Below are positions 1 through 15,134 of a stretch of DNA of 58,889 nucleotides, one piece after another. The translations under genes and the position numbers were made by a program. The stretch covers positions 1 through 58,889 of the forward strand of contig JAUIML010000003.1 in the NCBI GenBank assembly GCA_030432715.1, given 5' to 3'. Each line of letters starts with the position of its first letter. Within the stretch, counting starts at the first letter, position 1. This stretch comes from Acidimicrobiia bacterium. GTDB taxonomy: Bacteria > Actinomycetota > Acidimicrobiia > Acidimicrobiales > Aldehydirespiratoraceae. The notes below the pieces were generated by a model, which was not told where the DNA came from, did not search any database, and saw nothing but the letters and a program-made list of their open reading frames with translations.

Positions 1-743
1 ACGAAGTTGAATCCAGGGCCCCGGAAGAACGAGCCGATCATCACGAGAACCGCCCAGAACATGAGGTGGATCGTCATGAGGGAGACCGCGAACTTGCGAT
101 CCTCGGGCTTGTTCGACGGGTTCTTGTCGATGTAGGGCGCCAGGATCAGGACGAACAGGCCGATGCCCGGGATGGTCACACCGGCGACCATCGGGTGGAA
201 CATCGTGAGGAGCTCCTGGAGACCGAGGAAGTACCACGGCGCCTTCGACGGGTTGGGGGTCTCGTTGAAGTTGGCGAGCTCGAGCAGCGGGGCGTTGACG
301 AAGATCGAGAAGATCAGGGTGAACGCGGTGATGAACAGGGCCGCCGCGAACTCGATGACCAGGAGGTGGGGCCACACGTGGACCTTGTCCTGTGGGACCG
401 CCTTGACGTCCTGGATCGACCCCGACTTGACGACGGTGAGCAGTCGCTGGGTGTGGCCGCCGGGACCGGTGGCCAGGGGTGCGGCGGCTGCTGCCGCGGG
501 CGCCGCGGCGGGCGCGGCCGTCGCCACGGCACCGCCGGTGTCGCCACCGTCGGCCTTGGACTTGGCGGCCTTGGAGCGCTCGAGCAGGTGGGCCGGGATC
601 TTGGACGCGGCCTCCTTCTGTTCGTCGCTGAGTTCGGTCTCCTCGGCCGGGGCGGCGTCGCCCGACGCCGCAGCCTTGGCCGCGGCGGCCTTGGCCCTGG
701 CCTCTTCGGCCCGCTTGCGGAGATGCTCTGGGACTTCGGTCAT
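1..743 (-). CDS. Cytochrome b6/f subunit IV-like (menaquinol:cytochrome c reductase, C-terminal half of split cytochrome b); 3' end runs off the window
   Basis: Manual translation from ATG at 743: MTEVPEHLRKRAEEARAK...DKVHVWPHLLVIEF...NETPNPSKAPWYFLGLQELL...APYIDKNPS. This carries the PEWY-equivalent motif and TM helices. It lies directly downstream of cytochrome b6. Absent from the ORF track because it has no stop in the window. Confidence 0.9.
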   Translation of the reverse strand, partial: MTEVPEHLRKRAEEARAKAAAAKAAASGDAAPAEETELSDEQKEAASKIPAHLLERSKAAKSKADGGDTGGAVATAAPAAAPAAAAAAPLATGPGGHTQRLLTVVKSGSIQDVKAVPQDKVHVWPHLLVIEFAAALFITAFTLIFSIFVNAPLLELANFNETPNPSKAPWYFLGLQELLTMFHPMVAGVTIPGIGLFVLILAPYIDKNPSNKPEDRKFAVSLMTIHLMFWAVLVMIGSFFRGPGFNF

Positions 744-770
744 CGTTCCTCGTCTCTACCCATCCCCGGC

Positions 771-1568
771 CTACAGCGGACCCGAGATGCCGCCGTCCTT
801 GCGCACCCGCCAGAAGTGAATCGCCATGAAGATGACGATCACGAACGGGAGCATCAGAACGTGGAGTACGTACCAACGCAACAGGGTGTCGGTGCCGATC
901 TCGACGCCGCCGAGCAGCACGAATCTCACCTGATCACCGAAGACGGGGGTGTACCCCATCATGTTCGTTCCCACGGTCACCGCCCAGAGGGCCAGCTGAT
1001 CCCAGGGCAGGAGGTAGCCGGTGAACGACAACAACAGGGTGAGCATCAGCAGGATCACGCCGATGACCCAGTTGAACTCACGGGGTGGCTTGTAGGCGCC
1101 GTGGTAGAAGACGCGAGCCATGTGGAGGAACACGGTCAGCACCATGAGGTGCGCACCCCATCGGTGCATGTTGCGGACCAGCAGACCGAAGGTGACCGAG
1201 GTCTGCAGGGTGTAGATGTCGTCCCAGGCGGCCGCCGCGGTCGGGCGGTAGAAGAACATGAGGAAGATGCCGGTGACGGTCAGGAGGATGAAGAGGAAGA
1301 AGCTGAGCCCACCGAGGCAGAGGGTGTAGCTGACCTTGACGGCGTGACGCTTCACCTTCACCGGGTGCAGGTGGTACAGCACCGAGTTCATGATCACGTA
1401 GGACCGGTTCCTCGGGCTGTCGGTGTAGCCCTTCCGGAAGATCGAACCGGGACGGAAGATCGAATTCCAGGCCTGGCTGGAGACGATGTCGTCGCCGAGC
1501 TGCGACATGGAGTCCTGCACCCGCTGCGGGAGTGGCTTCTGGATTTCTTCGTCGGTGTCGTTCGCCAT
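771..1568 (-). CDS. Cytochrome b6-type N-terminal cytochrome b subunit (PetB/QcrB-like)
   Basis: YTLCLGG; heme ligands in RNMHRWGAH...FLH and LHV...AIH; GYLLPWDQ; C-terminus RKDGGISGPL as in cytochrome b6. Confidence 0.95.
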   Translation of the reverse strand: MANDTDEEIQKPLPQRVQDSMSQLGDDIVSSQAWNSIFRPGSIFRKGYTDSPRNRSYVIMNSVLYHLHPVKVKRHAVKVSYTLCLGGLSFFLFILLTVTGIFLMFFYRPTAAAAWDDIYTLQTSVTFGLLVRNMHRWGAHLMVLTVFLHMARVFYHGAYKPPREFNWVIGVILLMLTLLLSFTGYLLPWDQLALWAVTVGTNMMGYTPVFGDQVRFVLLGGVEIGTDTLLRWYVLHVLMLPFVIVIFMAIHFWRVRKDGGISGPL

Positions 1569-1596
1569 GATGCGTCTTTCTCCTGCGTCGCCCGGC

Positions 1597-2013
1597 TCAG
1601 CCGAGGCGCATTCCGTATCCGTAGCCGTGAGAGTTGGTTCGTTGGTGGGCGTCGCCGCCGGCGGCGGGGTCGCCGATCTTGCCGAGGATGATCACGCCGG
1701 TGGGGCAGCGATCGACACAGAGTGCGCAGCGGGTGCACACGTCGTCGTCGATCGTGAAGATCACGTGGTCGTTGGGGTCGGTGCCCGGGAGTTCGGTGCC
1801 GATGGCCTCGTCGATGGCGTCGGGGCGCACCATGAAGATGCACTTCCACGGGCAGATGTCGACGCAGCCCTCGCACATGATGCACTCGGACTGGTCGATG
1901 TGGATGAACTGCTTGGGCTTCACCGCCTGGCTGAGCCAGGCCGCATCGACTTCCTGGAGCACGTAGTCGTCGCGGAACTCCGGCATCGGGGGATTCGCAT
2001 CGGTCTTGGTCAC
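1597..2013 (-). CDS. 2x[4Fe-4S] ferredoxin-like protein
   Basis: CIMCEGCVDICP and CTRCALCVDRCP motifs. GTG start overlaps the upstream stop (GTGA). Confidence 0.92.
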   Translation of the reverse strand: MTKTDANPPMPEFRDDYVLQEVDAAWLSQAVKPKQFIHIDQSECIMCEGCVDICPWKCIFMVRPDAIDEAIGTELPGTDPNDHVIFTIDDDVCTRCALCVDRCPTGVIILGKIGDPAAGGDAHQRTNSHGYGYGMRLG

Positions 2014-2462
2014 GACGCCGCACCCTCCTTGACGAGGGGACGACCGAAGCTCGAACGGGCCGGCGCGGTCGACTCCTGCGCCTTGCCGCGATTCTGCCAG
2101 ACCGACCAGAGCCAGATGTTGCCACCGAGCACCACGCCGTAGATGACGACGGCGATGATGTGCTCGATGTGGAGATAGTTGATCGTGATGGGGTTCCAGC
2201 CGCCCTCGGTCTGGGGCTTGAGGAAGCCGCCGGGGCCGTGGAAGAACTTGTCGGAACGCCAGTTGAGCTCGTTCTCCGCCCAGACGAGCCACTGGTGCGG
2301 CACGACGCCGTAGGCCCAGAACATGAGGAAGAACACCACGAAGGCACCCATCATCGCCTCGCCCCAGGTGTGGGGCTGACCGACCGGACGTCGCTTCGCG
2401 TACGCGAGAATGCCCCCCACGATGACGGCGGTGATGACGATGGAGAGGGTGAAAGCAACCAC
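2010..2462 (-). CDS. Hypothetical membrane protein (about 3 TM), first gene of the cytochrome b operon
   Basis: AGGAG RBS then GTG at 2462. Hydrophobic segments; translationally coupled to the ferredoxin. Confidence 0.8.
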   Translation of the reverse strand: MVAFTLSIVITAVIVGGILAYAKRRPVGQPHTWGEAMMGAFVVFFLMFWAYGVVPHQWLVWAENELNWRSDKFFHGPGGFLKPQTEGGWNPITINYLHIEHIIAVVIYGVVLGGNIWLWSVWQNRGKAQESTAPARSSFGRPLVKEGAAS

Positions 2463-2497
2463 GAGCGGCTCCTGCTGGAGTCGTGGACCCACGGGGC

Positions 2498-2515
2498 TCG
2501 TGAATCCACGCACAA
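2498..2515. promoter_or_regulatory. Putative Rex operator upstream of the cytochrome b operon
   Basis: TCGTGAA-TCCA-CGCACAA resembles TTGTGAA-N4-TTCACAA and the site upstream of rex (15153-15170). Confidence 0.55.
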
Positions 2516-2664
2516 GTGTAGACCCGAGCGGACCTGCGACTCGGGTTGGGCGAAGGTTTACCACGGGAAAAGTCGCCCGGACCCAATCCGGCGCCGCAGA
2601 AATCTGACGCGGGTTCGATTCCCTCCCCAAGTTGCTCCTACGTGCGACACTGCCTCTATCCTTC

Positions 2665-2692
2665 GCTCGGTCTGCACGCGTGCAGACCGAGC
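2665..2692. repeat. Perfect 28-bp palindrome in the divergent intergenic region
   Basis: GCTCGGTCTGCACGCGTGCAGACCGAGC equals its own reverse complement. Confidence 0.9.
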
Positions 2693-2730
2693 TGTAGAGA
2701 TCTTGTCCTGACCCCGCACCGGAGACGACG

Positions 2731-3552
2731 GTGACCGAAGTACCCGAGCATCTGCTCAAGAAGGCCGCAGAGGCCCGTGCCCGCCTCAAGGGTGAGAGCA
2801 CCGACGCCGCCGAAACCGCCGAGGCGCCCGCCGCCGAGGCCGCGCCCGCATCGGCCGCACCGGTTCCCGCCGCGGCCGCGGTGCCCGCCGAGCCCGAGCC
2901 CGAACCCGAGCCGGTCCCCGACACGCCCTGGGTCGCGGCGGCCAAGGCCCGCAAGACCATTCCGGTCTGGGTCATGCCCGTGCTCTTGTTCCTCCCCTTC
3001 TGGGCCATCTACTACGTCGGCTATCTCGAGCGTCCGCCGGCCGAGGGCGGTCTCGCGGTCGAAGGCGAGGAGATCTACGCCCAGTGCGCCGGCTGCCACG
3101 GTGGCGGCGGTGGCGGTGGCACCGGCCGCCAGCTCAACGACGGTGAGGTCACCCGTACCTTCCCGCACGGCGTCACGGAGAACGGCTACGACGGCCTCGC
3201 CGGCATGATCGCCTGGGTGGCCAACGGCTCGAACAAGACCGCCGAACTCGAGGGTGGCCCCGGCTACGGCGATCCCGATCGCGAGGGTGGCCAGCACCAG
3301 ATCGGTGGGGGCGGCATCATGGCCGGCTTCGCCGCAGGCCTCAACGTCGAGACCCTCGGCGCCGTGGTCTTCCACGAGCGCTCGCAGTTCGGCGACCTCG
3401 AGGCCGACCTCGTCATCGAGGAGCTCGAACTCATCGAGGAGTGGATCGAGGTCATGGAAGAGGAGGGGATCGAGATCGTCGACATCCCCTACGACACCGT
3501 GCACGAGACCCTCGAGACGGCTCGCGGCAACCTCGGTCTCGCCGAGAGCTGA
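2731..3552 (+). CDS. Membrane-anchored monoheme c-type cytochrome
   Basis: CAGCH heme-binding motif after a TM helix (IPVWVMPVLLFLPFWAIYY). Likely distal Met in GGIMAGF. Confidence 0.9.
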   Translation: MTEVPEHLLKKAAEARARLKGESTDAAETAEAPAAEAAPASAAPVPAAAAVPAEPEPEPEPVPDTPWVAAAKARKTIPVWVMPVLLFLPFWAIYYVGYLERPPAEGGLAVEGEEIYAQCAGCHGGGGGGGTGRQLNDGEVTRTFPHGVTENGYDGLAGMIAWVANGSNKTAELEGGPGYGDPDREGGQHQIGGGGIMAGFAAGLNVETLGAVVFHERSQFGDLEADLVIEELELIEEWIEVMEEEGIEIVDIPYDTVHETLETARGNLGLAES

Positions 3553-3555
3553 CCC

Positions 3556-4368
3556 TCAGCCCACCTCGACGACGGCGCGCGATCCCAACTCGGCGCGCAA
3601 CGAGTCGGCCAAGGCGGCCAGCGCCGGGTCGTCGGCGAGCAGCGCGATCTTGGCGTCGATGACGTCGCCCTCGACCGGCCATCCGAGCACCCACGCGGTG
3701 AACGTCTCCGACAGGTCCTCGTGGGCCGAGGTCGACGCGTAGGAGTTGACGAAGTGTGCCTCGTCGCCGCTCGCGACGCCGTCAGGCCAGAACCGTTGGG
3801 CGTAGCGGGCCAGGACCGACCCTTCGGCCGCGCACCCGAGGTCGATCACCACACCGTCGCAGTCGTCGACATGGCTGAAGGTGAACACCGCACGGTCGAG
3901 CGTGACCACGTGCGACAGCTCGTGGACGATCGTCTCCTCCAGCAGGGCACGATCGGGAAGGTCGGCCACGTCGAGACTGAGGATCCAGCCGCCGGTCGCC
4001 GACGGGTGGACGACGCCGACGAGGCCCCGCGGCTCCTCGCGCACCACCGAGAGCTGAGCCAGTGCGTCGCGGTGGGCCGCCGGCCAGATGCCGTCGACGA
4101 CCTCCCAGACGGCGGCCAGCTCGCCCTGCAGCTCGTCGCCGGCGCCGCCGTCGACGACGATCACGTCGCCGACCCGTTCGACGGTCTGACGGTACGACAC
4201 CCGTTCGACGACACGGGCGGTCTCGTCGCCGAGCTCGACGCCGGCGAGGCCGACCCGGGTCGCCGGCGGACCGCCATCGCCGTCCCACGGAGCGGCGATG
4301 TTCAGCGCCGCGGCGAGGCCCACAGCCACCGAGAGTCCTGCGATCCGTGTTCGTCGTGTGGCCATCAT
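3556..4368 (-). CDS. Secreted putative zinc metallopeptidase
   Basis: N-terminal signal or anchor; IVHELSH (HExxH) and FVNSYASTSAHEDLSETF motif. Confidence 0.7.
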   Translation of the reverse strand: MMATRRTRIAGLSVAVGLAAALNIAAPWDGDGGPPATRVGLAGVELGDETARVVERVSYRQTVERVGDVIVVDGGAGDELQGELAAVWEVVDGIWPAAHRDALAQLSVVREEPRGLVGVVHPSATGGWILSLDVADLPDRALLEETIVHELSHVVTLDRAVFTFSHVDDCDGVVIDLGCAAEGSVLARYAQRFWPDGVASGDEAHFVNSYASTSAHEDLSETFTAWVLGWPVEGDVIDAKIALLADDPALAALADSLRAELGSRAVVEVG

Positions 4369-4564
4369 CTTCCGTCCGATCCGTCCGCTCCCGAGGATAG
4401 AGACCTCTCCGGCGCGGTCTCCATGGGCCGTCCGGCACGCTCTTCCTGAGCCCTCCGGCACGGGGGCGACGATCCGGTGGGCCGGAAGCACCAGTCGGGC
4501 GCGGTGACCCGCGAGACTGAGGCCGCGGCGCAGCGATGACGACTCGACCCGCGGAGGCGACCAG

Positions 4565-7055: not shown

Positions 7056-8318
7056 TCAGAGATTCTTCGCCACCCGGCGAACGGCCTCGATCGTGGCATC
7101 GACCTCGTCGCTACCGTGGGCGAGGCTGGGGAAGAGGGCCTCGTAGGCCCCGGGAGCGAGCGCCACGCCGGCCTCGAGCATCCCGTGGAAGAAGCGTTCG
7201 TACACGCCGTTCTCACAGACGGCCTTGGCCCCCTCGAAGTCGACCGGCGCCTGCGGGCCGAAGAAGAGGCCGAGCAGAGGGCCGACCCGCGGCACGGAGG
7301 CGACCACGCCGGCGTCGGCGAAGGCCTCGATCATCCCGGCCTGGAGCGTCGCCGCGGTGGCGGTCAGCTGGTCGTAGGCGGCCGGCGTGAGCTGCTCGAG
7401 TTGGGCCAGACCGGCCGCCATGGCGAGCGGGTTCCCCGACAGGGTCCCCGCCTGGTACACCGGCCCGAGCGGGGCCAGGTGCGACATGATCTCGCGTGAG
7501 GCGCCGAAGGCGCCCACGGGCAGTCCGCCGCCGATCACCTTGCCGAAGCACCAGATGTCGGGCTTGACCTCGAACCACTCGGCCGCCCCGCCGCGGCAGA
7601 GGCGGAACCCGGTGATCACTTCGTCGAACATCAACAAAGCACCCGTGTCGTCGCACGCGGCGCGCAGGCCGGCGAGGAAGCCGGGCTGGGGCTCGATGAG
7701 CCCCATGTTGGCCGCGACCGGTTCGACGATGACCGCCGCGACCGTGTCGTCGATCTCGGGGACGACGTTGTAGGGCGCGACGATCGTGTCGGCGACCGCC
7801 CCTTCGGTGACCCCTTCGGATCCCTTGAGTCCCTGTTGGGCGACTCCCGACCCTCCGGCGACGAGCAGCGAGTCGGAGTGGCCGTGGTAGTTGCCGGCGA
7901 ACTTGAGGATGCGGTCTCGACCGGTCGCGCCGCGGGCGAGACGGATCGCCGTCATCGTCGCCTCGGTGCCGGACGACACCATGCGCACCATCTCCATGCC
8001 GTCGATGCGGCGACACATCTCCTCGGCCAACAGCACCTCCGCCTCGGTCGGCGCGCCATAGCTGGTGCCCTTGGCTGCCGCCGACTCGACCGCCGCGGTG
8101 ACCGCGGGGTGGGCGTGGCCGAGGATGCCGGGGCCGTAGCTCATCACGTAGTCGATGTAGCGGTTGCCCTCGACGTCGTAGACGTGCGGCCCCTCGGCCC
8201 GAGCGACGAAGTAGGGGGTGCCACCGACCGAGCCGAAGGCCCTGACCGGGGAGTTGACCCCGCCGGGGATCACGGCGCGGGCGCGCTCGAACAGCGCGGC
8301 GTTCGTCGGCTCGGTCAC
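7056..8318 (-). CDS. hemL: Glutamate-1-semialdehyde 2,1-aminomutase
   Basis: IPGGVNSPVRAF, FDEVITGFR, FGKVIGGGLPVGA, QAGTLSGNP. GTG overlaps the hemB stop. Confidence 0.97.
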   Translation of the reverse strand: MTEPTNAALFERARAVIPGGVNSPVRAFGSVGGTPYFVARAEGPHVYDVEGNRYIDYVMSYGPGILGHAHPAVTAAVESAAAKGTSYGAPTEAEVLLAEEMCRRIDGMEMVRMVSSGTEATMTAIRLARGATGRDRILKFAGNYHGHSDSLLVAGGSGVAQQGLKGSEGVTEGAVADTIVAPYNVVPEIDDTVAAVIVEPVAANMGLIEPQPGFLAGLRAACDDTGALLMFDEVITGFRLCRGGAAEWFEVKPDIWCFGKVIGGGLPVGAFGASREIMSHLAPLGPVYQAGTLSGNPLAMAAGLAQLEQLTPAAYDQLTATAATLQAGMIEAFADAGVVASVPRVGPLLGLFFGPQAPVDFEGAKAVCENGVYERFFHGMLEAGVALAPGAYEALFPSLAHGSDEVDATIEAVRRVAKNL

Positions 8319-9295
8319 TGCATCAGCTCCGACAGTCGGCGGGCGAAGTAGGTGAGGATCAGGTCGGCGCCCGCCCGCTTGATGGCGAGGGTGTGTTCGA
8401 AGGCCACGGCGTCGAGCTCGAGCCAACCCCGCTCGGCGGCTGCGTGGACCATCGCGTACTCGCCGCTGACGTGGTAGGCCGCAATCGGGATGTCGACCTC
8501 GGCCCGGGCCCGGGCGATGACGTCGAGGTAGGGCAGGGCGGGCTTGACCATGACCATGTCGGCACCCTCCGCGATGTCTTCGCGGATCTCCTCCATCGCC
8601 TCGCGGGCGTTGGCCACGTCCTGCTGGTAGCCCTTGCGGTCTCCGCCACCGGTGATGGTCACGTCGACCGCATCGCGGAACGGCCCGTAGAGGGCCGTGG
8701 CGTACTTGGCCGCGTAGGCGAGGATCGCGGTCTCGTCGAAGCCGGCGTCGTCGAGCGCTTCACGGATCGCGAACACCTGCCCGTCCATCATCCCCGACGG
8801 CGCAACGATGTCGGCGCCGGCCGTCGCCTGGGCGACGGCGATCTGCTCGTAGAGCTCGAGTGTCGCGTCGTTGTCGGGCTGGCCGCTGTGGTCGAGCACG
8901 CCACAGTGACCGTGGTCGGTGTATTCGTCGACGCACAGGTCGGCGATCAGCACCATGTCGTCGCCGTGGTCGTCGCGGAGATCCCCCAGTGCGACCTGCA
9001 CGATGCCGTCGGGGTTCCACGCCTCGGATCCCTCGGCGTCCTTGTGTTCGGGCACGCCGAACAGCACCACCGCGGGCACCCCGAGATCCTTTAGCTGGCG
9101 TACCTCCTGGCGCAACGACGCCCGGGAGTGCTGGAACTGGCCGGGAAGCGACTCGATGGGTTGGGGTTCGTCGATCCCTTCGCGCACGAAGAGCGGGGCG
9201 ATGAAGTCGTCGGGGTGGAGTCGGGTCTCGCTCACCATGCGCCGCAACGTGGGCGTACGGCGGAGGCGACGCAGACGACGCTGGGGAAAGGTCAC
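8315..9295 (-). CDS. hemB: Porphobilinogen synthase
   Basis: RRLRRLR, DLCVDEYTDHGHCG, APSGMMDG, MVKPAL, AYHVSGEYAM. Confidence 0.97.
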   Translation of the reverse strand: MTFPQRRLRRLRRTPTLRRMVSETRLHPDDFIAPLFVREGIDEPQPIESLPGQFQHSRASLRQEVRQLKDLGVPAVVLFGVPEHKDAEGSEAWNPDGIVQVALGDLRDDHGDDMVLIADLCVDEYTDHGHCGVLDHSGQPDNDATLELYEQIAVAQATAGADIVAPSGMMDGQVFAIREALDDAGFDETAILAYAAKYATALYGPFRDAVDVTITGGGDRKGYQQDVANAREAMEEIREDIAEGADMVMVKPALPYLDVIARARAEVDIPIAAYHVSGEYAMVHAAAERGWLELDAVAFEHTLAIKRAGADLILTYFARRLSELMQ

Positions 9296-9304
9296 GCCGT
9301 GAGG

Positions 9305-9979
9305 CTACCGAGGTGTGCGGTGCCGACCCGCCTCGTGGCGGGCCCGCACCTGGCGGTCGGCGGCGCGCGCGAAGTCGGGATGGACGTTGCGGAGCTCGAC
9401 CCAACGACCCGTGCCGTCGAGCACGACCGACACGCGGCGACGGTTGGCGAGCGTGGAACTGACCGTCAACGCCACCAGGCCACCGAGCATCGCCACCACG
9501 AGGAGGACCACGCCGAATGACTCGTGACGAACCGGCAGCCAGTCGACATAGGCCGAGGGCGCGGCGAGCACGGCGACACCGGTGACGAAGGCGAGCACCG
9601 GAACGGCCGCGACCCAGTTGCCCCAGCCGATGATGCGGTTCTGGTCCTCGAGCGCGGCGCGGGTCATGGGCACCGACCCGCCGACCCGACCCGGGCGCCG
9701 ACCGAAGACCCACATGACGGCGATGGCGACGATGCCGAGGGGTCCGAGCAACAGCAACAGCAACCACCAGGCCTGGAAGGACGACTCGTCGCTCTCGACG
9801 CCCACCAGCCCGTCGGCCGGGGCCCCGGTGCGGGCACAGACCATCGGCAGGTCGCCCACCACGAAATCATCGACGGGGACCCGGGCGAGACAGCCCTGCG
9901 CTCGCCGGGACGACGGCGACACCGCGGCCAACAGCGCGAGGAAGCCGACCACGAGGACGCCGAAGATCAGGACGGACAT
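9305..9979 (-). CDS. Hypothetical membrane protein
   Basis: Several hydrophobic helices; LPMVCARTG and C-terminal VELRNVHPDFA; fills the gap in the operon orientation. Confidence 0.7.
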   Translation of the reverse strand: MSVLIFGVLVVGFLALLAAVSPSSRRAQGCLARVPVDDFVVGDLPMVCARTGAPADGLVGVESDESSFQAWWLLLLLLGPLGIVAIAVMWVFGRRPGRVGGSVPMTRAALEDQNRIIGWGNWVAAVPVLAFVTGVAVLAAPSAYVDWLPVRHESFGVVLLVVAMLGGLVALTVSSTLANRRRVSVVLDGTGRWVELRNVHPDFARAADRQVRARHEAGRHRTPR

Positions 9980-9983
9980 CTGC

Positions 9984-10637
9984 TCAGACTAGGCCGAAGC
10001 GGCCGAACGGGAAATCGAGGAGCGAGTCGAGCAGCAGGTCGGCGTCGTGCGGTGGATCGAGCACGGTGATGCGGTTGGGCACGACGAGGCAGGTCATGCC
10101 GGCGGCCTTGGCCGCCGCGCACCCGTGCCGTGAGTCCTCGATCGCAACCGCATCGCCCGGATCGACACCGAGTTCGGCTGCCGCCGAGAGGTAGAGGTCC
10201 GGGGCCGGCTTGCCCCGGTCGACGTGGTCGCGGGTCCGGATGGTGACGAAGTGGTGGATCAGCTCGAGCCGTTGGAGGTGCGGCTCGACCCACGCGGACG
10301 TGGAACTCGACGCGACCGCGAGCGGGATTCCGGCGTCGGCCGCCGCAGAGATGACCTCGACGACGCCGGGGAACAGCCCCATCTCCTCGGCCCAGGTCGC
10401 CCGCCGGCGGGCGGCCGACCGGATGATCTCCGGATCGGGCGGCTCGCCCAGCGCCTCTTCGAGCAGTTCGGGCAGCGACTTGTTGTCGGCGAGTCCGATC
10501 CCCTTGACCCACTCCTCGAGTGCGTAGTCGAGGCCGTGGGCGCGGAAGGCATCCCTGACGAGCTCGAAGATGGGCCACTCGGTGTCGGCGATCGTGCCGT
10601 CGAAGTCGAAGACGATGGCCGCCGGCCTCTCGCTCAC
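9984..10637 (-). CDS. HAD-superfamily phosphatase
   Basis: FDFDGT, ASSS, GKPAPDLY, IEDS motifs. Confidence 0.92.
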   Translation of the reverse strand: MSERPAAIVFDFDGTIADTEWPIFELVRDAFRAHGLDYALEEWVKGIGLADNKSLPELLEEALGEPPDPEIIRSAARRRATWAEEMGLFPGVVEVISAAADAGIPLAVASSSTSAWVEPHLQRLELIHHFVTIRTRDHVDRGKPAPDLYLSAAAELGVDPGDAVAIEDSRHGCAAAKAAGMTCLVVPNRITVLDPPHDADLLLDSLLDFPFGRFGLV

Positions 10638-10969
10638 AGGGCGAGATGTTCGTCGTCGCGCAGCTTGGTGGCCATCGTGAACGCGGCCCCCCGCAGGGTG
10701 CGCAGGCGGTCGTTCACCGGGCGCACACGATCGTCGGCGATCGCGTGGCCGTTGGCCGGGTGGATCGTCAGGTCCCGCAGGCTGCCCATACCGCCGAACG
10801 CAGCCAACAGGTGACCCAGGGCGTCGGGGTGACCTTCGGCGATGAGTCGTCGATCGCGCTCGATCCAGTCGGCCCAACGATCCTCGTCCCAGGCCCGCAG
10901 GAGCGATCCGAGTTCGTCGAGCACCCGGAGGAGATCGTCTCGTTCGGGGGTGGCATTGCGGCGGGCCAT
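10634..10969 (-). CDS. Small hypothetical protein (DUF6966-like, GGMGS motif)
   Basis: WADWIE...LLAAFGGMGSLRD. Stop overlaps the HAD start. Confidence 0.7.
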   Translation of the reverse strand: MARRNATPERDDLLRVLDELGSLLRAWDEDRWADWIERDRRLIAEGHPDALGHLLAAFGGMGSLRDLTIHPANGHAIADDRVRPVNDRLRTLRGAAFTMATKLRDDEHLAL

Positions 10970-11005
10970 CACCCAAGAGTGGCGCACCGGAGGCCGTCGC
11001 GGGGG

Positions 11006-12217
11006 TCAGACGGTGAAGTCGAGTACGAACCAGTGGTCGGCGTGGGGTTCCTCGTTGAAGGGCTCGACCTCCACGAAACCCTCGCTGCGATAGAGCGAGA
11101 TGGCTTCGGTCAGCGCCCGGTTGGTCTCGAGCCGCACGCCGGAACGCCCCATGGCCCTGGCCTCGGCCACCAGGCGGCGCAGCAGTCGGCGACCGACACC
11201 ACGCCCCCGGACCTCGTCGCTCACCCACATCCGCTTGATGTCGATGACTGCGGGATCGACCGCCTTCAGAGCACCACAGGCGACCGGCCGCCCGGCCAAT
11301 CGGCCCGCCACGAACAACCCGTCGGGCGGACTGATCTCGTGCGGGTCCGACGTGAAGATCGCCGCCCGGTCGAGGCCGGTCTCGAACCGTCGATCGATTT
11401 CGGCGTAGTACTGCTCGATCAGCCAGCGGGCATCGTCGCTGTCGGCCGGCTCGGGCCGCAGGAGGACCATCGTCGGCACCGCCGCCACGATGGCCTCCAC
11501 GAGGCCGGGGATCGTGTGGGGATCGGCTTCGACGTCGACCGACAGGTCGAGGGCCCGCGCCGCTTCGGCGGTGGCCGGCCCGATGCAGGCCAGCACGGGC
11601 GGCAGGTTCTCACGCCCCACTCCCTCCACGAGGTGGCGGACCGTCGAGGCCGATGTGAAGGCGGCGACGTCGGCATGGCGACAGGTCGTGCGGTCGGCGG
11701 TCGGCACCGGCACGCCGACCGTGCGGTAGGCCGCGACGTCGTGCACGGTCCATCCGCGGGATCGCAGCCCTTCGGGAAGCACGGCCCGAGCGGTCTCGGC
11801 CCGGGCGAGCACCATGGTGCCGCCGTCCGGTCCGGGGTCGGGAAGCGCATCGAGGAGCCCCTCCGCGATCGAGCTGCCCGGCACGAGGTCGACGCGCAGC
11901 CCGGCGGCGAGGGCCCGGGCCCTCGTGCCGGGACCGATCGCCGCGACCGACACGCCGTCGGGCAGTGGTCGATCACGGAGCGCGGCGGCCACCCGCGTTG
12001 CGCCGTTGGGGCTGCTGACCACCAGCCAGTCGCCGGCGTCGAGCGAGGCCAACGCCGCCCGGAGGGCCGCACCGTCGTCAGCCGGATCGGTGATCTCGAT
12101 GACCGGGACGGGGACCGCGGTGGCCCCTTCGGCCTCGAGCGCCGACACGAGGGAGGCCGACTGTGCGCGCGGTCGAGTGACGACCACCCGGACACCGTGG
12201 AGCGGCGCGACGCTCAC
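11006..12217 (-). CDS. hemD: Uroporphyrinogen-III synthase fused to a C-terminal GNAT acetyltransferase
   Basis: VVVTRPRAQ, SSPNGA, AIGPGT, AYRT, FTSASTV, ACIGPATA, then in frame IKRMWV...RGRGVGRRLL...RLETN...AISLY. Confidence 0.9.
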   Translation of the reverse strand: MSVAPLHGVRVVVTRPRAQSASLVSALEAEGATAVPVPVIEITDPADDGAALRAALASLDAGDWLVVSSPNGATRVAAALRDRPLPDGVSVAAIGPGTRARALAAGLRVDLVPGSSIAEGLLDALPDPGPDGGTMVLARAETARAVLPEGLRSRGWTVHDVAAYRTVGVPVPTADRTTCRHADVAAFTSASTVRHLVEGVGRENLPPVLACIGPATAEAARALDLSVDVEADPHTIPGLVEAIVAAVPTMVLLRPEPADSDDARWLIEQYYAEIDRRFETGLDRAAIFTSDPHEISPPDGLFVAGRLAGRPVACGALKAVDPAVIDIKRMWVSDEVRGRGVGRRLLRRLVAEARAMGRSGVRLETNRALTEAISLYRSEGFVEVEPFNEEPHADHWFVLDFTV

Positions 12218-13107
12218 CGAGCGTCCACGAGCAGGTCGGCGCCACCCGCGTCGTCGAGCAGATGGCGGGCCGCGGCCCGCCCGAGCGCCTCGGGCTCGCG
12301 TCCCCGCCGGCGGTCGCGGATCAGGACCCGGCCGTCGAGCGAGGCCAACACGGCGACCAGTTCGATCTCGTCGCCCTCGAGCACGGCGTGAGCCCCGGCC
12401 GGAAGGTCGCAGTCGCCGCCGAGTTCGGAGAGGAAGGCCCGTTCGGCGTCGACGGCTCGACGGGTCGGCGCATGGTCGATCGCCCGCAACCGCTCGATGG
12501 TCGGGCCGTCGTCGACCCGGCACTCGATGGCCAGTGCGCCCTGAGCGACCTGGGGCAGCATCACCGACGGGTCGAGACGGTCGATCACGGGAGCCGAGAG
12601 CCCGAGCCGGTCGATCGCCGCAGCCGCGACCACGATCGCGTCGAAGTCGGCGGCCTTCTCCATCCGCGTGGGCACATTGCCCCGCAGCTCGGAGAACCGC
12701 AGGTCGGGTCGCAGCCAGGCCATCTGCGCCCGGCGCCGAACCGACCCCGTGGCCACGTGGGCCCCCGGCGCGAGATCGTCCCAGCGGCAGCCAACGAGCG
12801 CATCGCGGGGGTCGGCCCGTTCGGGGACGGCGATCAGCACCAGGCCGTCGGGTGTTTCCGCCGGGAGATCCTTGCCGGAGTGCACGGCGAGATCGGCGCG
12901 GCCGTCGAGCACCGCCGCCTGGACCTCTTTGACGAAGACGCCCTTGCCGCCGATCGCGTGCAGGGGGGTGGACTTGTCGCGGTCGCCGAGCGTCGACACG
13001 ATCACCTCGTCGACCCCGCCGCCGCCCGACGCGTCGAGCAGGGCGCCCACGTGGGCCGTCTGCCAACGGGCGAGAGCGCTGCCCCGGGTGGCCGCCCGCA
13101 AGGTCAT
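12214..13107 (-). CDS. hemC: Hydroxymethylbilane synthase
   Basis: ATRGSALARWQ, GKGVFVKE, VHSGKD, GSVRR, LRGNVPTR, LGGDC. Confidence 0.96.
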   Translation of the reverse strand: MTLRAATRGSALARWQTAHVGALLDASGGGGVDEVIVSTLGDRDKSTPLHAIGGKGVFVKEVQAAVLDGRADLAVHSGKDLPAETPDGLVLIAVPERADPRDALVGCRWDDLAPGAHVATGSVRRRAQMAWLRPDLRFSELRGNVPTRMEKAADFDAIVVAAAAIDRLGLSAPVIDRLDPSVMLPQVAQGALAIECRVDDGPTIERLRAIDHAPTRRAVDAERAFLSELGGDCDLPAGAHAVLEGDEIELVAVLASLDGRVLIRDRRRGREPEALGRAAARHLLDDAGGADLLVDAR

Positions 13108-13117
13108 CGTCGGCGGC

Positions 13118-14377
13118 TCAGAGATCGAACAGGTCGCGCAACGACTCGGCCAGGCGATCGCCGCGGGCTCGCCCGGCGGCGTCCTTGAGCCGAACGGTCG
13201 GCTGGTGGAGCAGCTTGTTGACGATGCCCTTCGTGAGGGCCTCGACCGCCTCGCGTTCGGCCGGCTCCAGGCCGGCGAGCTTCTTGGCATGACGCTCGAG
13301 CTCGGTCGTGCGGATGAACTCGGCGGTGGCGCGGAGGTCGCCGATCAGCGGAGCGACCTCACGGGCCGACACCATCGCGTGATAGCGGTCGACCTCGGCG
13401 TCGACGATCGCCCGCACGCTCTCGACCTCGTTGTTGCGTCCTTCCAGACCCGTGTCGATGAACGCACCGATGTCGTCCATGTCGAGCAGGGTCACCCCGG
13501 GCAGCGCCCGGGCCGCGGGGTCGACGTCGCGGGGGACGGCGACGTCGACGATCACGAGATCGCGGCCGTCGCGCTGGGCGGCGAGGCCGGTGACGTCGGA
13601 GGCTTCGAGGATGAGGTCCTGCGCACCCGTGGTCGTGACCAACACGTCGACCCGAGCGAGGGCGGTCGCCAACTGGTCGAGGGGCACGGCGACACCGGCG
13701 CAGGCCGAGGCGAGCGCCACGGCCCGCTCCCAGGTGCGGTTGGCGACGAGGACCTCTGCGGCGCCGGCCTTGGCCAACGACTTGACCGTTCCCTCGGCCA
13801 TCTCACCCGCGCCGATCACCAGGACGGTGCGACCGCGGATGCCGCCGATGCGGTCACCGGCGAGCGCCACTGCGGCCTGCGAGACCGAGGCGATCCCGCG
13901 GGCGATCGAGGTCTCGGTGCGGGCCCGCTTGCCGGTCTCGACCGCATGGCGGAACAGCCCGCCCAGGGCGGAGCCGACCGTGCCCTCGACGCGCGCCGTC
14001 TCCCAGGCGTCGCGGACCTGCCCGAGGATCTCGTGTTCGCCGACCACGGCCGAATCGAGACCGGCGGCGACGGAGAAGAGGTGGCGGACGGCCTCGGTGT
14101 CGTGATGGGCGTAGAGGTGGTCGGCGACGTCTTCGGGGGCCAGCCCGGCCTGCCGGGCGAGGAACTCGCGGACGTCCTGGTAGCCACCGTGGAACCGCTC
14201 GGCGAAGGCGTAGACCTCGATTCGGTTGCAGGTCGACACCACGACGACTTCGGAGAGGTTCTCGGCCTCACCCAGTCCGGAGAGCGCCTTGGGGAGGCCA
14301 CCGGGCGCGATCGTCATCCGCTCGAGCTTGGCGAGCGGGGTCGACCGGTGGTTGCAGCCAATGGCGACGATCGACAC
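13118..14377 (-). CDS. hemA: Glutamyl-tRNA reductase
   Basis: STCNRIE, GLDSAVVGEHEILGQV, IGAGEM, DVAVPRDV, KLLHQP. Confidence 0.97.
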   Translation of the reverse strand: MSIVAIGCNHRSTPLAKLERMTIAPGGLPKALSGLGEAENLSEVVVVSTCNRIEVYAFAERFHGGYQDVREFLARQAGLAPEDVADHLYAHHDTEAVRHLFSVAAGLDSAVVGEHEILGQVRDAWETARVEGTVGSALGGLFRHAVETGKRARTETSIARGIASVSQAAVALAGDRIGGIRGRTVLVIGAGEMAEGTVKSLAKAGAAEVLVANRTWERAVALASACAGVAVPLDQLATALARVDVLVTTTGAQDLILEASDVTGLAAQRDGRDLVIVDVAVPRDVDPAARALPGVTLLDMDDIGAFIDTGLEGRNNEVESVRAIVDAEVDRYHAMVSAREVAPLIGDLRATAEFIRTTELERHAKKLAGLEPAEREAVEALTKGIVNKLLHQPTVRLKDAAGRARGDRLAESLRDLFDL

Positions 14378-14504
14378 GGAGGGCCTTACGGGCAGCGGAT
14401 GTGGTGGGAAACGTGCGGCCGGCGACGAGCACGCGTCGGCAACACTCCAGCGTGACGGAAAAGGCGGTGCTTTGCCAACCTCTGGGCCGTCGCGGCGACC
14501 TTCG

Positions 14505-15134
14505 TCACAGGTCCCGCTGAAGATGGAATCCCAGGATCTGCAGCTCCGTCGACAGATCCACCATCCGGACCTCGACCGTGTCGGGCACGCTGACCACCCG
14601 CGGACTGAAATCGAGAATCGACCGCACCCCCGCGGCCACCAGCAGATCGGCCGTCTCCTGCGCGGCCTCGGCCGGTGTCGCGATCACCCCGATGGCGACC
14701 TCGAGATCGTGGACGAGGGCCGCGAGCTCGTCGGGAGAATGCACCCGAAGCCCGTCGATGGTGGTGCCGACGATCTCGGGATCGACGTCGATCGCGGCCA
14801 CCACCGGGAACCCCCGCTCGGTGAACCCCGTGTGCTTGGCCAGGGCCCTGCCCAGGTTGCCGAGCCCGCACACGACGACCGGCCAGGTGTTGGCCACGCC
14901 CAGCGCCCGGCTCACCTCGAAGGTGAGGTGACGCACGTCGTAGCCGACCCCGCGGGTGCCGTGGGTCCCGAGGTAGCTGAGGTCCTTGCGCACCTTGGCC
15001 GCGTTCACCCCGGCCCGTTCCGCCAGGACGTCGGAACTCGTCGTGGGCTCTCCCGCCGCAGCCAGTTCGGTCAGGCTGCGCAGGTACAACGGAAGCCGGG
15101 CGACCGTCGCCTCGGGGATGTGTCCTGTAGCCAC
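14505..15134 (-). CDS. rex: Redox-sensing transcriptional repressor Rex
   Basis: IPEATVARLPLY, KVRKDLSYLG..GTRGVGY, GLGNLG; upstream of hemA. Confidence 0.96.
   Translation of the reverse strand: MATGHIPEATVARLPLYLRSLTELAAAGEPTTSSDVLAERAGVNAAKVRKDLSYLGTHGTRGVGYDVRHLTFEVSRALGVANTWPVVVCGLGNLGRALAKHTGFTERGFPVVAAIDVDPEIVGTTIDGLRVHSPDELAALVHDLEVAIGVIATPAEAAQETADLLVAAGVRSILDFSPRVVSVPDTVEVRMVDLSTELQILGFHLQRDL

Follow-up and report, generated by a model that had tools for sequence, protein, structure and literature searches.

The window analysed here, the first 58,889 bases of contig JAUIML010000003.1 from an Acidimicrobiia bacterium (69% G+C), opens inside a minus-strand operon that encodes, in this order, a three-helix membrane protein, a 2x[4Fe-4S] ferredoxin, cytochrome b6 and subunit IV of a Rieske/b6 complex, and the gene of a membrane-anchored monohaem cytochrome c runs divergently from position 2731 on the plus strand. 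In related loci, genes for a Rieske protein and for another anchored cytochrome c follow in the operon. Subunit IV and the divergent cytochrome c share a short N-terminal peptide, here called the leader, whose motif occurs in an N-type and an internal-type form. The parts of the two leader-bearing proteins lie as follows:

690-743, minus strand: N-type copy of subunit IV, residues 1-18, MTEVPEHLRKRAEEARAK (from the translation; ATG at 743-741)
606-689, minus strand: linker 1 of subunit IV, 28 residues, rich in Ala and Glu (from conservation and model confidence)
552-605, minus strand: internal-type copy of subunit IV, SKIPAHLLERSKAAKSKA (from the translation and a regular-expression match)
3-551, minus strand: linker 2 of subunit IV, then its PetD-like membrane core (PF00032 at residues 157-238; the gene extends past the window start)
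2731-2784, plus strand: N-type copy of cytochrome c, residues 1-18, (V/M)TEVPEHLLKKAAEARAR (from the translation; GTG start at 2731)
2785-2952, plus strand: linker of cytochrome c, 56 residues, rich in Ala, Pro and Glu (from the translation)
2953-3549, plus strand: membrane anchor of cytochrome c (KTIPVWVMPVLLFLPFWAIYYV), haem domain and acidic C-terminal extension (CAGCH at 3085-3099)

The MTEVPEHL leader that the preliminary description had noted on subunit IV (743, minus) and on cytochrome c (2731, plus) is present in both translations. The second copy in subunit IV, previously placed at 599-561, was found to be the IPAHLLERSKAAK core of a full copy at 552-605, which begins 45 residues after the N-type copy. 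As had been described, stretches rich in Ala, Pro and Glu lie between the motifs and the first hydrophobic helix of both proteins, with Gly enriched too, and the two proteins are unrelated. Subunit IV belongs to the PetD family, matching PF00032 with 29.4 bits (cut-off 20.7) and having the b6 gene directly upstream, and its full-length relatives are about 259 residues long. The cytochrome c of the window gave weak class I matches below the Pfam cut-offs (23.3 versus 27; 18.1 versus 21.3) together with the CAGCH haem site, and relatives from other loci, such as L010 and L072, score above the class I cut-offs. In the six-frame translation of the whole window, the regular expression [IVL]P[EAD]HL[LRIVM] has exactly three matches, all in these two genes; residue shuffles gave a mean of 0.17 matches and reached three in one of 300 shuffles. 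Shine-Dalgarno-like GGAG or GAGGA sequences lie 3-7 nucleotides ahead of both starts, the leader is translated and conserved, and the true starts do not lie downstream of it.

Two further observations concern the same cytochrome c. The C-terminal extension behind its haem domain (3376-3549, plus strand) is very acidic (EADLVIEELELIEEWIEVMEEEGIEIVDIPYD...) and poorly conserved (0.40). Its anchor (2953-2976, plus strand) opens with KTIPVWVM, for which relatives have [KR]-x-IP-x-W-[VA]-M, a pattern that recalls the [KR]IPAHLL of internal-type copies.

The leader is kept in orthologues of both proteins. Among the 120 best relatives of the cytochrome c (37-95% identity), 111 carry the motif, 109 of these at residue 4; the nine without it comprise six N-terminally truncated predictions and three with Tyr instead of His. 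Both copies of subunit IV were found in 117 of its 120 best relatives with the strict regular expression and in 119 with a relaxed one, in a set at 76-98% identity that saturated the search and so covers close relatives only. In 73 subunit IV sequences, M1, P5, E6, H7 and L8 never vary. Aligning 61 sequences of the cytochrome c (35-82% identity) showed 12 invariant columns, of which four lie in the motif (E3, P5, L8 and L9), the rest being C119, C122 and H123 of the haem site, the distal Met and a few Gly or Tyr. The mean majority-residue fraction in subunit IV is 0.86 and 0.83 for the two motifs against 0.39 and 0.51 for the linkers, and in cytochrome c it is 0.79 for the motif against 0.58 for the haem domain.

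This conservation acts at the protein level, as had been proposed from the codons of the two leaders, which do differ (GTC CCA versus GTA CCC). In 131 unique DNA instances of the N-type motif, all four Pro codons, all four CTN Leu codons, both Glu and both His codons occur, and positions left free by the search pattern are conserved too (K at position 10 in 115 of 131, R or K at position 16 in 129 of 131). Residue 2 of these instances is restricted to T, A, V, P or S; since each of these permits removal of the initiator Met, the mature N-terminus may be T-E-I-P-E-H.

The two leaders also form the longest inverted repeat within positions 1-3600 (693-746 and 2728-2781, 54 nucleotides, 81%), and the synonymous third positions of the two leaders are slightly more often identical within a genome (108 of 178, 0.61) than between genomes (0.53 +/- 0.03). 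Both features could be taken to mean that the leader is no protein feature at all, but an RNA element at the 5' ends, the product of concerted evolution of an inverted DNA repeat, or an artefact of mis-called starts. This reading is contradicted by the data and is almost certainly wrong. Synonymous positions vary freely, motif residues are invariant across relatives at 35-82% identity, the starts have their Shine-Dalgarno sequences, and the same peptide occurs in the distant nuo operon and in internal and C-terminal copies. An RNA element was rejected, since three motif regions fold no better than their shuffles (z = -0.50, -1.39 and 0.02) and have no match in Rfam. Recent gene conversion was rejected as well, because the small same-genome excess fits shared codon usage. 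The inverted repeat is thus the DNA shadow of the protein motif.

To learn how far the leader extends, 185,579 species genomes were scanned with the back-translated N-terminal motif, which gave at least 135 stretches. Among the matches listed, two are due to chance (one inside a Tsukamurella monooxygenase, the other in an open reading frame of 22 codons), and the other stretches hold subunit IV, cytochrome c or a third carrier, NuoC of complex I. The relaxed regular expression made 221 matches in 149 open reading frames of the listed loci, namely 79 of subunit IV, 32 of cytochrome c, three of NuoC and 35 leaders that have no body because the locus ends. The same leader is borne by the NuoC (PF00329) of L008 and L031, at 68% and 46% G+C, respectively, and L008 has the operon nuoA-nuoB-nuoC-nuoD. 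In one metagenome-assembled genome, the leader-bearing NuoC (L008) and a leader-bearing subunit IV (L032) lie on the same contig. Among the matches listed, almost all carrier genomes belong to the orders and families of the Acidimicrobiia or carry the unspecific label Actinomycetota, and the leader is in almost all cases restricted to the Acidimicrobiia. Its carriers include the cultured Aquihabitans sp. G128 and Salinilacustrithrix flava.

A few loci have outlying labels: seven Bifidobacterium (L033, L046, L054, L079, L088, L089 and L106), three Acidobacteria (L040, L085 and L086) and one Planctomycetaceae (L126). Wherever the gene body falls inside such a locus, the leader sits on subunit IV or cytochrome c, and L040, which is fully annotated, has a typical Acidimicrobiia operon. 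These contigs are probably mis-binned or mislabelled, since the outlying loci that were examined hold the same operon.

Comparison of the copies separated the two forms of the motif: the N-type, x-E-[IV]-P-E-H-L-[LR]-K-R-[AS]-x-x-[AR]-[RK], and the internal type, [KR]-I-P-A-H-L-L-E-R-S-[KR]. They differ at three positions. Position 0, before I/V, is E in 86 of 86 N-type copies and K or R in 61 of 63 internal-type copies; position 3, after Pro, is E in 85 of 86 and A in 52 of 63, respectively; and position 7, three residues past His, is K or R in 78 of 86 and E or D in 54 of 63. Positions 0 and 3 of the N-type are fixed by the search pattern in most loci, yet they are also invariant in cytochrome c relatives that were collected by similarity over the whole length. 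In most carriers with several copies, a single N-type copy comes first and internal-type copies follow 23-58 residues on. The motif His was rejected as a metal or haem ligand, since several later copies have A, F, Y, K, D or G in its place.

In some lineages, the motif is extended to about 28 residues (IPEHLLRRSAEAKAKALGVPVEQVLAEM) and repeated two to six times (L055:728-2035, minus; L069:1061-2035, minus; P0244; P0364), with Lys for His in later repeats. Weak Pfam MIF matches over this extended module in L055, L069 and P0364, which stay under the cut-off or hardly exceed it and have no significantly aligned stretch, were read as noise.

The swapped charges of the two forms, together with the usual order of one N-type copy followed by internal-type copies, would suit a self-complementary zipper. 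N-type helices would then pair with internal-type helices, in cis or between carriers, and cytochrome c and NuoC would latch onto subunit IV through its internal-type helix, no third protein being needed. We consider such a zipper improbable. The N-type charges at positions 0 and 3 are mostly set by the search pattern, and the swap is equally well explained by salt bridges within each helix or by helix-dipole effects. Furthermore, the apolar face offers just two leucines and alanines at a negative mean hydrophobicity (-0.15 to -0.53), which would make for a weak zipper, and positions 0 and 7 hardly vary within subunit IV, leaving no covariation to read.

The linkers are long and of biased composition. 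In 110 cytochrome c relatives, 44-68 residues lie between motif and anchor (A 31%, P 20%, E 8%), and the two copies of subunit IV are spaced by 40-52 residues in 119 relatives. AlphaFold2, run on 73 subunit IV sequences, predicted helices at residues 6-26 and 51-64, which begin right after P5 and P50. The predicted local distance difference test score (pLDDT) of the blocks was 61-80 for the two motif helices, with 69-80 for helix 6-26, and it fell below 50 at residues 27-38 and 66-110. It is established that the N-terminus of PetD, the N-terminus of a cytochrome c before its single anchor, and NuoC all lie on the n-side, in the cytoplasm. On this known topology, the motif copies on all three respiratory carriers are expected to face the cytoplasm.

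A cytoplasmic helix of this kind could also lie on the membrane surface, as a basic amphipathic helix that binds anionic lipid such as cardiolipin and thereby clusters its carriers or anchors the soluble ones. Basic residues do come after the hydrophobic I-x-x-x-L-L core, the membrane would be a partner free of any stoichiometric limit, and such an anchor could be of use to the 13 of 28 additional carriers (see below) in which no membrane helix is predicted. The motif peptides, however, have Eisenberg hydrophobic moments of 0.19-0.34 at a mean hydrophobicity of -0.15 to -0.53, and their apolar face consists of I, L, L and Ala, being rich in Ala and devoid of Phe and Trp. For comparison, the same calculation gave 0.31 and 0.06, respectively, for the membrane helix of SepF, whose sequence was taken from the consulted portion of PMC7118173. 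Integral membrane carriers need no further anchor, and neither the strict invariance of Pro nor the near-invariance of His is explained by lipid binding. A membrane-surface role is very unlikely.

To find carriers beyond the genome matches, a profile of 18 positions was built from 149 motif segments and searched against 1.84 billion representative proteins, yielding 316 proteins at E <= 1e-3 and 34 at E <= 1e-10. The best 150 of the 316 include 36 subunit IV proteins, one cytochrome c and one NuoC, carriers with a single copy scoring lower. The 112 that remained unclassified among these 150 are mostly short, frameshifted or adaptor-tailed fragments of subunit IV leaders. From the best 150, we picked by eye 28 extra carriers whose sequence after the leader is clearly different (27 of them from the unclassified set). 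They have one to six motif copies at N-terminal, internal or C-terminal places, the first usually at residue 4, with C-terminal copies in P0243, P0288 and P0298. Membrane helices were predicted in 15 of the 28; in 14 of these they follow the leader, and in P0298 they precede the motif copies. Only a single pair is related outside the leader. A TIR domain was recognised in one extra carrier and a chagasin-type inhibitor in another; the remaining ones had no match in Pfam, PHROGs, NCBIfam or PADLOC, and Pfam at E <= 1 gave noise only. A search for longer carriers, made with residues 1-80 of the extra carrier P0241, returned eight matches, five of them subunit IV proteins, of which P0391, P0393 and P0395 are frameshift read-throughs and P0392 and P0394 are longer than usual.

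The TIR-domain carrier, P0321 (244 residues; PF13676 and PADLOC TIR models), has a two-copy leader much like that of subunit IV and is either a real fusion or an assembly chimera.

The leader is thus a modular short linear motif, conserved and selected as protein, with the anatomy of a helix on a disordered linker. Its Pro-capped conserved helix, its disordered tether, its modular spread with variable copy number and its strict conservation amid fast-evolving surroundings together point to a tethered docking motif. We propose, at a probability of about 0.55, that the leader is a handle for docking to protein and that, through multivalent binding, it gathers complex I, the b6 complex and its cytochrome c; that it binds protein at all, that co-localisation or co-assembly results, and which partner it has are what we infer from these properties. 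In this mechanism, the motif Pro would cap a short amphipathic helix, which a flexible Ala/Pro/Glu/Gly tether of 40-70 residues would hold by its end at the cytoplasmic membrane face and which would dock on a shared protein partner that faces the cytoplasm. Binding would be multivalent, since the carriers have one copy (cytochrome c and NuoC), two (subunit IV) or more, and would keep complex I, the Rieske/b6 complex and the membrane-anchored cytochrome c together, at a single site or within a single assembly.

The preliminary description had likewise suggested a docking peptide on a flexible tether. A cytoplasmic location by topology and a poorly conserved, low-confidence linker agree with it, but the peptide is not private to the two subunits, being found on NuoC and about two dozen other proteins as well. 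Random occurrence on non-respiratory proteins had been named as a finding that would speak against the idea. About two dozen mostly unannotated carriers were indeed found, but their occurrence is not random, the N-terminal, multi-copy, linker-flanked form being kept.

Several points weigh against the proposed docking handle. The AlphaFold2 model is poor overall (mean pLDDT 60.3, predicted template-modelling score 0.27). Some carriers, such as the TIR-domain protein and the chagasin-type inhibitor, have no visible link to respiration, so that the partner may be a general hub and respiratory co-localisation may not be the whole story. The extra carriers are absent from the at least 135 genome loci, and they may in part be assembly chimeras, adaptor-like tails and frameshifts being common in the 112 unclassified proteins. 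Finally, three or more ligands per complex would compete if the partner were one small ferredoxin, the candidate considered below.

Alternatively, the leader could serve biogenesis or quality control, as a tag that is bound transiently by a chaperone, an assembly factor or a protease adaptor and has no role in the finished architecture. With few exceptions, the first copy stands right at the N-terminus (residue 4 in 109 of the 111 motif-bearing cytochrome c relatives; profile match typically at 2-19), so that the motif would be first out of the ribosome, and the narrow choice of residue 2 in the 131 instances fits such a tag as well. There is also a precedent: redox enzyme maturation proteins (REMPs) of the NarJ/TorD/DmsD class are cytoplasmic proteins that, according to the consulted parts of PMC3316669 and PMC3712460, bind N-terminal peptides of respiratory enzyme subunits, signal sequences in the former. 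The leader, whose own binding is putative, resembles these peptides in place and in kind of carrier, but lacks a twin-arginine motif of the SRRxFLK type directly before a hydrophobic region: subunit IV has no RR in its N-type copy, and where a cytochrome c copy has RR, 44-68 residues separate it from the anchor. Neither NuoC nor subunit IV has a cofactor that would require proofreading, internal and C-terminal copies occur (P0243, P0288 and P0298), and arrays of copies on long tethers suit avidity more than a one-off hand-over. Taken together, a biogenesis tag is unlikely.

Known families offer no name for the leader. No curated family in Pfam, NCBIfam or PHROGs covers its residues 1-60, a profile search of the PDB with the leader returned a chance-level match to PcrA alone (E 1.4), and a literature search for the motif string and topic found no description of it. 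We class the leader as a tethered short linear docking motif that belongs to no named family.

One close likeness is the C-terminal peptide of FtsZ, which is, as described in the consulted part of PMC7118173, a short conserved terminal peptide on a long disordered linker used for docking. In the same text, the tail DDLDVPSFLQ of Corynebacterium glutamicum FtsZ binds SepF, with D, P and F conserved. Both peptides have a core of an acidic residue, I/V, P, any residue, an aromatic or His, and L, followed by basic residues, and the Escherichia coli FtsZ tail (locus L136) reads DIPAFLRKQAD where subunit IV has EVPEHLRKRAE. The leader might thus mimic the FtsZ tail and bind its receptor, in Actinobacteria for example SepF, placing its carriers relative to the division machinery. 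The architecture of body, disordered linker and short conserved landing-pad peptide is a mirror image of that of FtsZ, the motif profile, aligned locally to E. coli FtsZ, scores best exactly at IPAFLRK (residues 374-380), and some copies have F or Y for H (VPEYLL, VPDYLL, VPEFLF and VPAFLL). But this match has only 1.5 bits (conditional E 0.018 for one protein), and it is subject to a look-elsewhere effect, many known peptides having been compared informally. The leader does not fall into the class D-[IV]-P-x-F-L at the extreme C-terminus, although its I-P-x-H-L-R-K resembles I-P-A-F-L-R-K. It is N-terminal or internal rather than C-terminal, has His at the aromatic position in nearly all copies, often occurs in several copies, and is carried by respiratory proteins rather than by a cytoskeletal one. 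With no biological reason known for such a link, mimicry of FtsZ is highly improbable.

Two of the carriers have counterparts with N-termini of their own interest. The N-terminus of PetD in the chloroplast b6f complex belongs to the same subunit and lies on the same n-side face as the leader of subunit IV; in the consulted part of PMC13287000, it is regulatory, Thr4 being phosphorylated by STT7 and a five-residue deletion impairing function. Unlike the leader, it is short, without tether or repeat and without a counterpart on other complexes, and no sequence similarity between the two was found. The NuoC of the 11-subunit complex I of Bacillaceae resembles the leader-bearing NuoC in having a lineage-specific N-terminal extension, for which a contact with a partner is proposed in the consulted text of PMC3144371. 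That extension belongs to another lineage, and the same text reports for it no motif common to other respiratory complexes and calls other NuoC extensions unrelated.

For the docking handle proposed here, the rest of the minus-strand operon suggests where a partner might be sought. Its other genes and a second peptide lie as follows:

774-1568, minus strand: cytochrome b6 (PF00033, E 1.4e-46), in the same operon as subunit IV
1600-2013, minus strand: NuoI-like 2x[4Fe-4S] ferredoxin subunit (Fer4 families)
2013-2492, minus strand: three-helix membrane protein of no known family (start uncertain, 2462-2492)
2028-2048, minus strand: FGRPLVK tail of the three-helix membrane protein ([YF]GRPL[VI] motif)

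This Rieske/b6 operon (window 3-2492; L005, L032, L045, L069 and L073) is unusual in combining a membrane protein of no known family, a NuoI-like ferredoxin, cytochrome b6, subunit IV, a Rieske protein and an anchored cytochrome c. The ferredoxin has as its best NCBIfam match NuoI (TIGR01971, E 8e-10), which is below the cut-off. It is highly conserved, with a mean column identity of 73% in 55 loci, and its GTG start, with AAGGAGG ahead of it, overlaps the stop of the preceding gene. PDB profile searches found no close solved relative for the ferredoxin or for subunit IV. A split cytochrome b has been published for Ilumatobacter, a member of the Acidimicrobiia (consulted part of PMC4122944).

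The three-helix membrane protein, for which no match was found in Pfam or NCBIfam, ends with a second conserved peptide, S-x-[YF]-G-R-P-L-[VI]-[KR], which lies 8-12 residues from the stop in 66 of 66 six-frame matches in the window and 64 related loci. By the positive-inside rule, this FGRPLVK tail is predicted to be cytoplasmic. The peptide [YF]GRPL[VI] was found in two of the 395 collected proteins, P0243 and P0379, both otherwise unrelated carriers of the leader, and in P0379 a weak resemblance to the membrane subunit extends over the latter's last helix and tail (E 0.008 for a single comparison). The gene with the GRPL tail precedes that of the ferredoxin, the ferredoxin is NuoI-like, and NuoC touches NuoI in complex I (consulted part of PMC3144371). 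We therefore tentatively name as first candidate partner the n-side module of the b6 complex that has the NuoI-like ferredoxin at its centre, a choice that is possible but rather doubtful.

The Rieske proteins of related loci (L073:2781-3629, L032:2852-3739 and L005:2806-3657) have an additional N-terminal membrane helix; the cytoplasmic loop behind it, about 80 residues long, contains the conserved stretches LSRETRxRD and GREVERAA and is followed by a Tat-like NRRQFLNRS. Elsewhere in the window, an open reading frame at 3556-4450 (minus strand), between the cytochrome c gene and pgi, has an HELSH (HExxH-like) motif and an N-terminal hydrophobic stretch, with no Pfam match. A haem biosynthesis cluster at 7059-15134 (minus strand) contains a hemL-like aminotransferase, hemB, hemC and hemA, followed by a Rex-type redox repressor.

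A bolder extension of the docking proposal, possible but speculative, would make the leader the address label of an undescribed, Acidimicrobiia-wide cytoplasmic hub. This hub would bind the tethered helices of NuoC, of subunit IV (two per monomer) and of the anchored cytochrome c, and would thus string complex I, the Rieske/b6 complex and the electron acceptor into a tether-based assembly. The label would be portable and would have been copied onto dozens of unrelated proteins that use or exploit the hub. The extra carriers may belong to mobile elements, since they are absent from the at least 135 genome loci and were seen in metagenome catalogues only; in tblastn searches, however, P0362 and P0241 had no match in phage records and P0241 none in plasmid records, collections that hold few Acidimicrobiia elements, and a mobile-element origin is accordingly unsupported.

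In practice, the motif marks the true N-termini of these genes in metagenome-assembled genomes of Acidimicrobiia and flags unannotated proteins that probably meet the same partner. It also draws attention to a peculiar Rieske/b6 complex, with a NuoI-like ferredoxin, a membrane subunit of no known family and no close solved relative in PDB searches. If the leader does dock as proposed, it would be a clear bacterial addition to the short list of hub-type short linear motifs, of which the FtsZ tail is the best known. Bacterial respiratory supercomplexes are known to be held together by rigid contacts between subunits; an electron-transport chain in which complex I, complex III and the intervening cytochrome c share a peptide label on flexible tethers would be organised differently.

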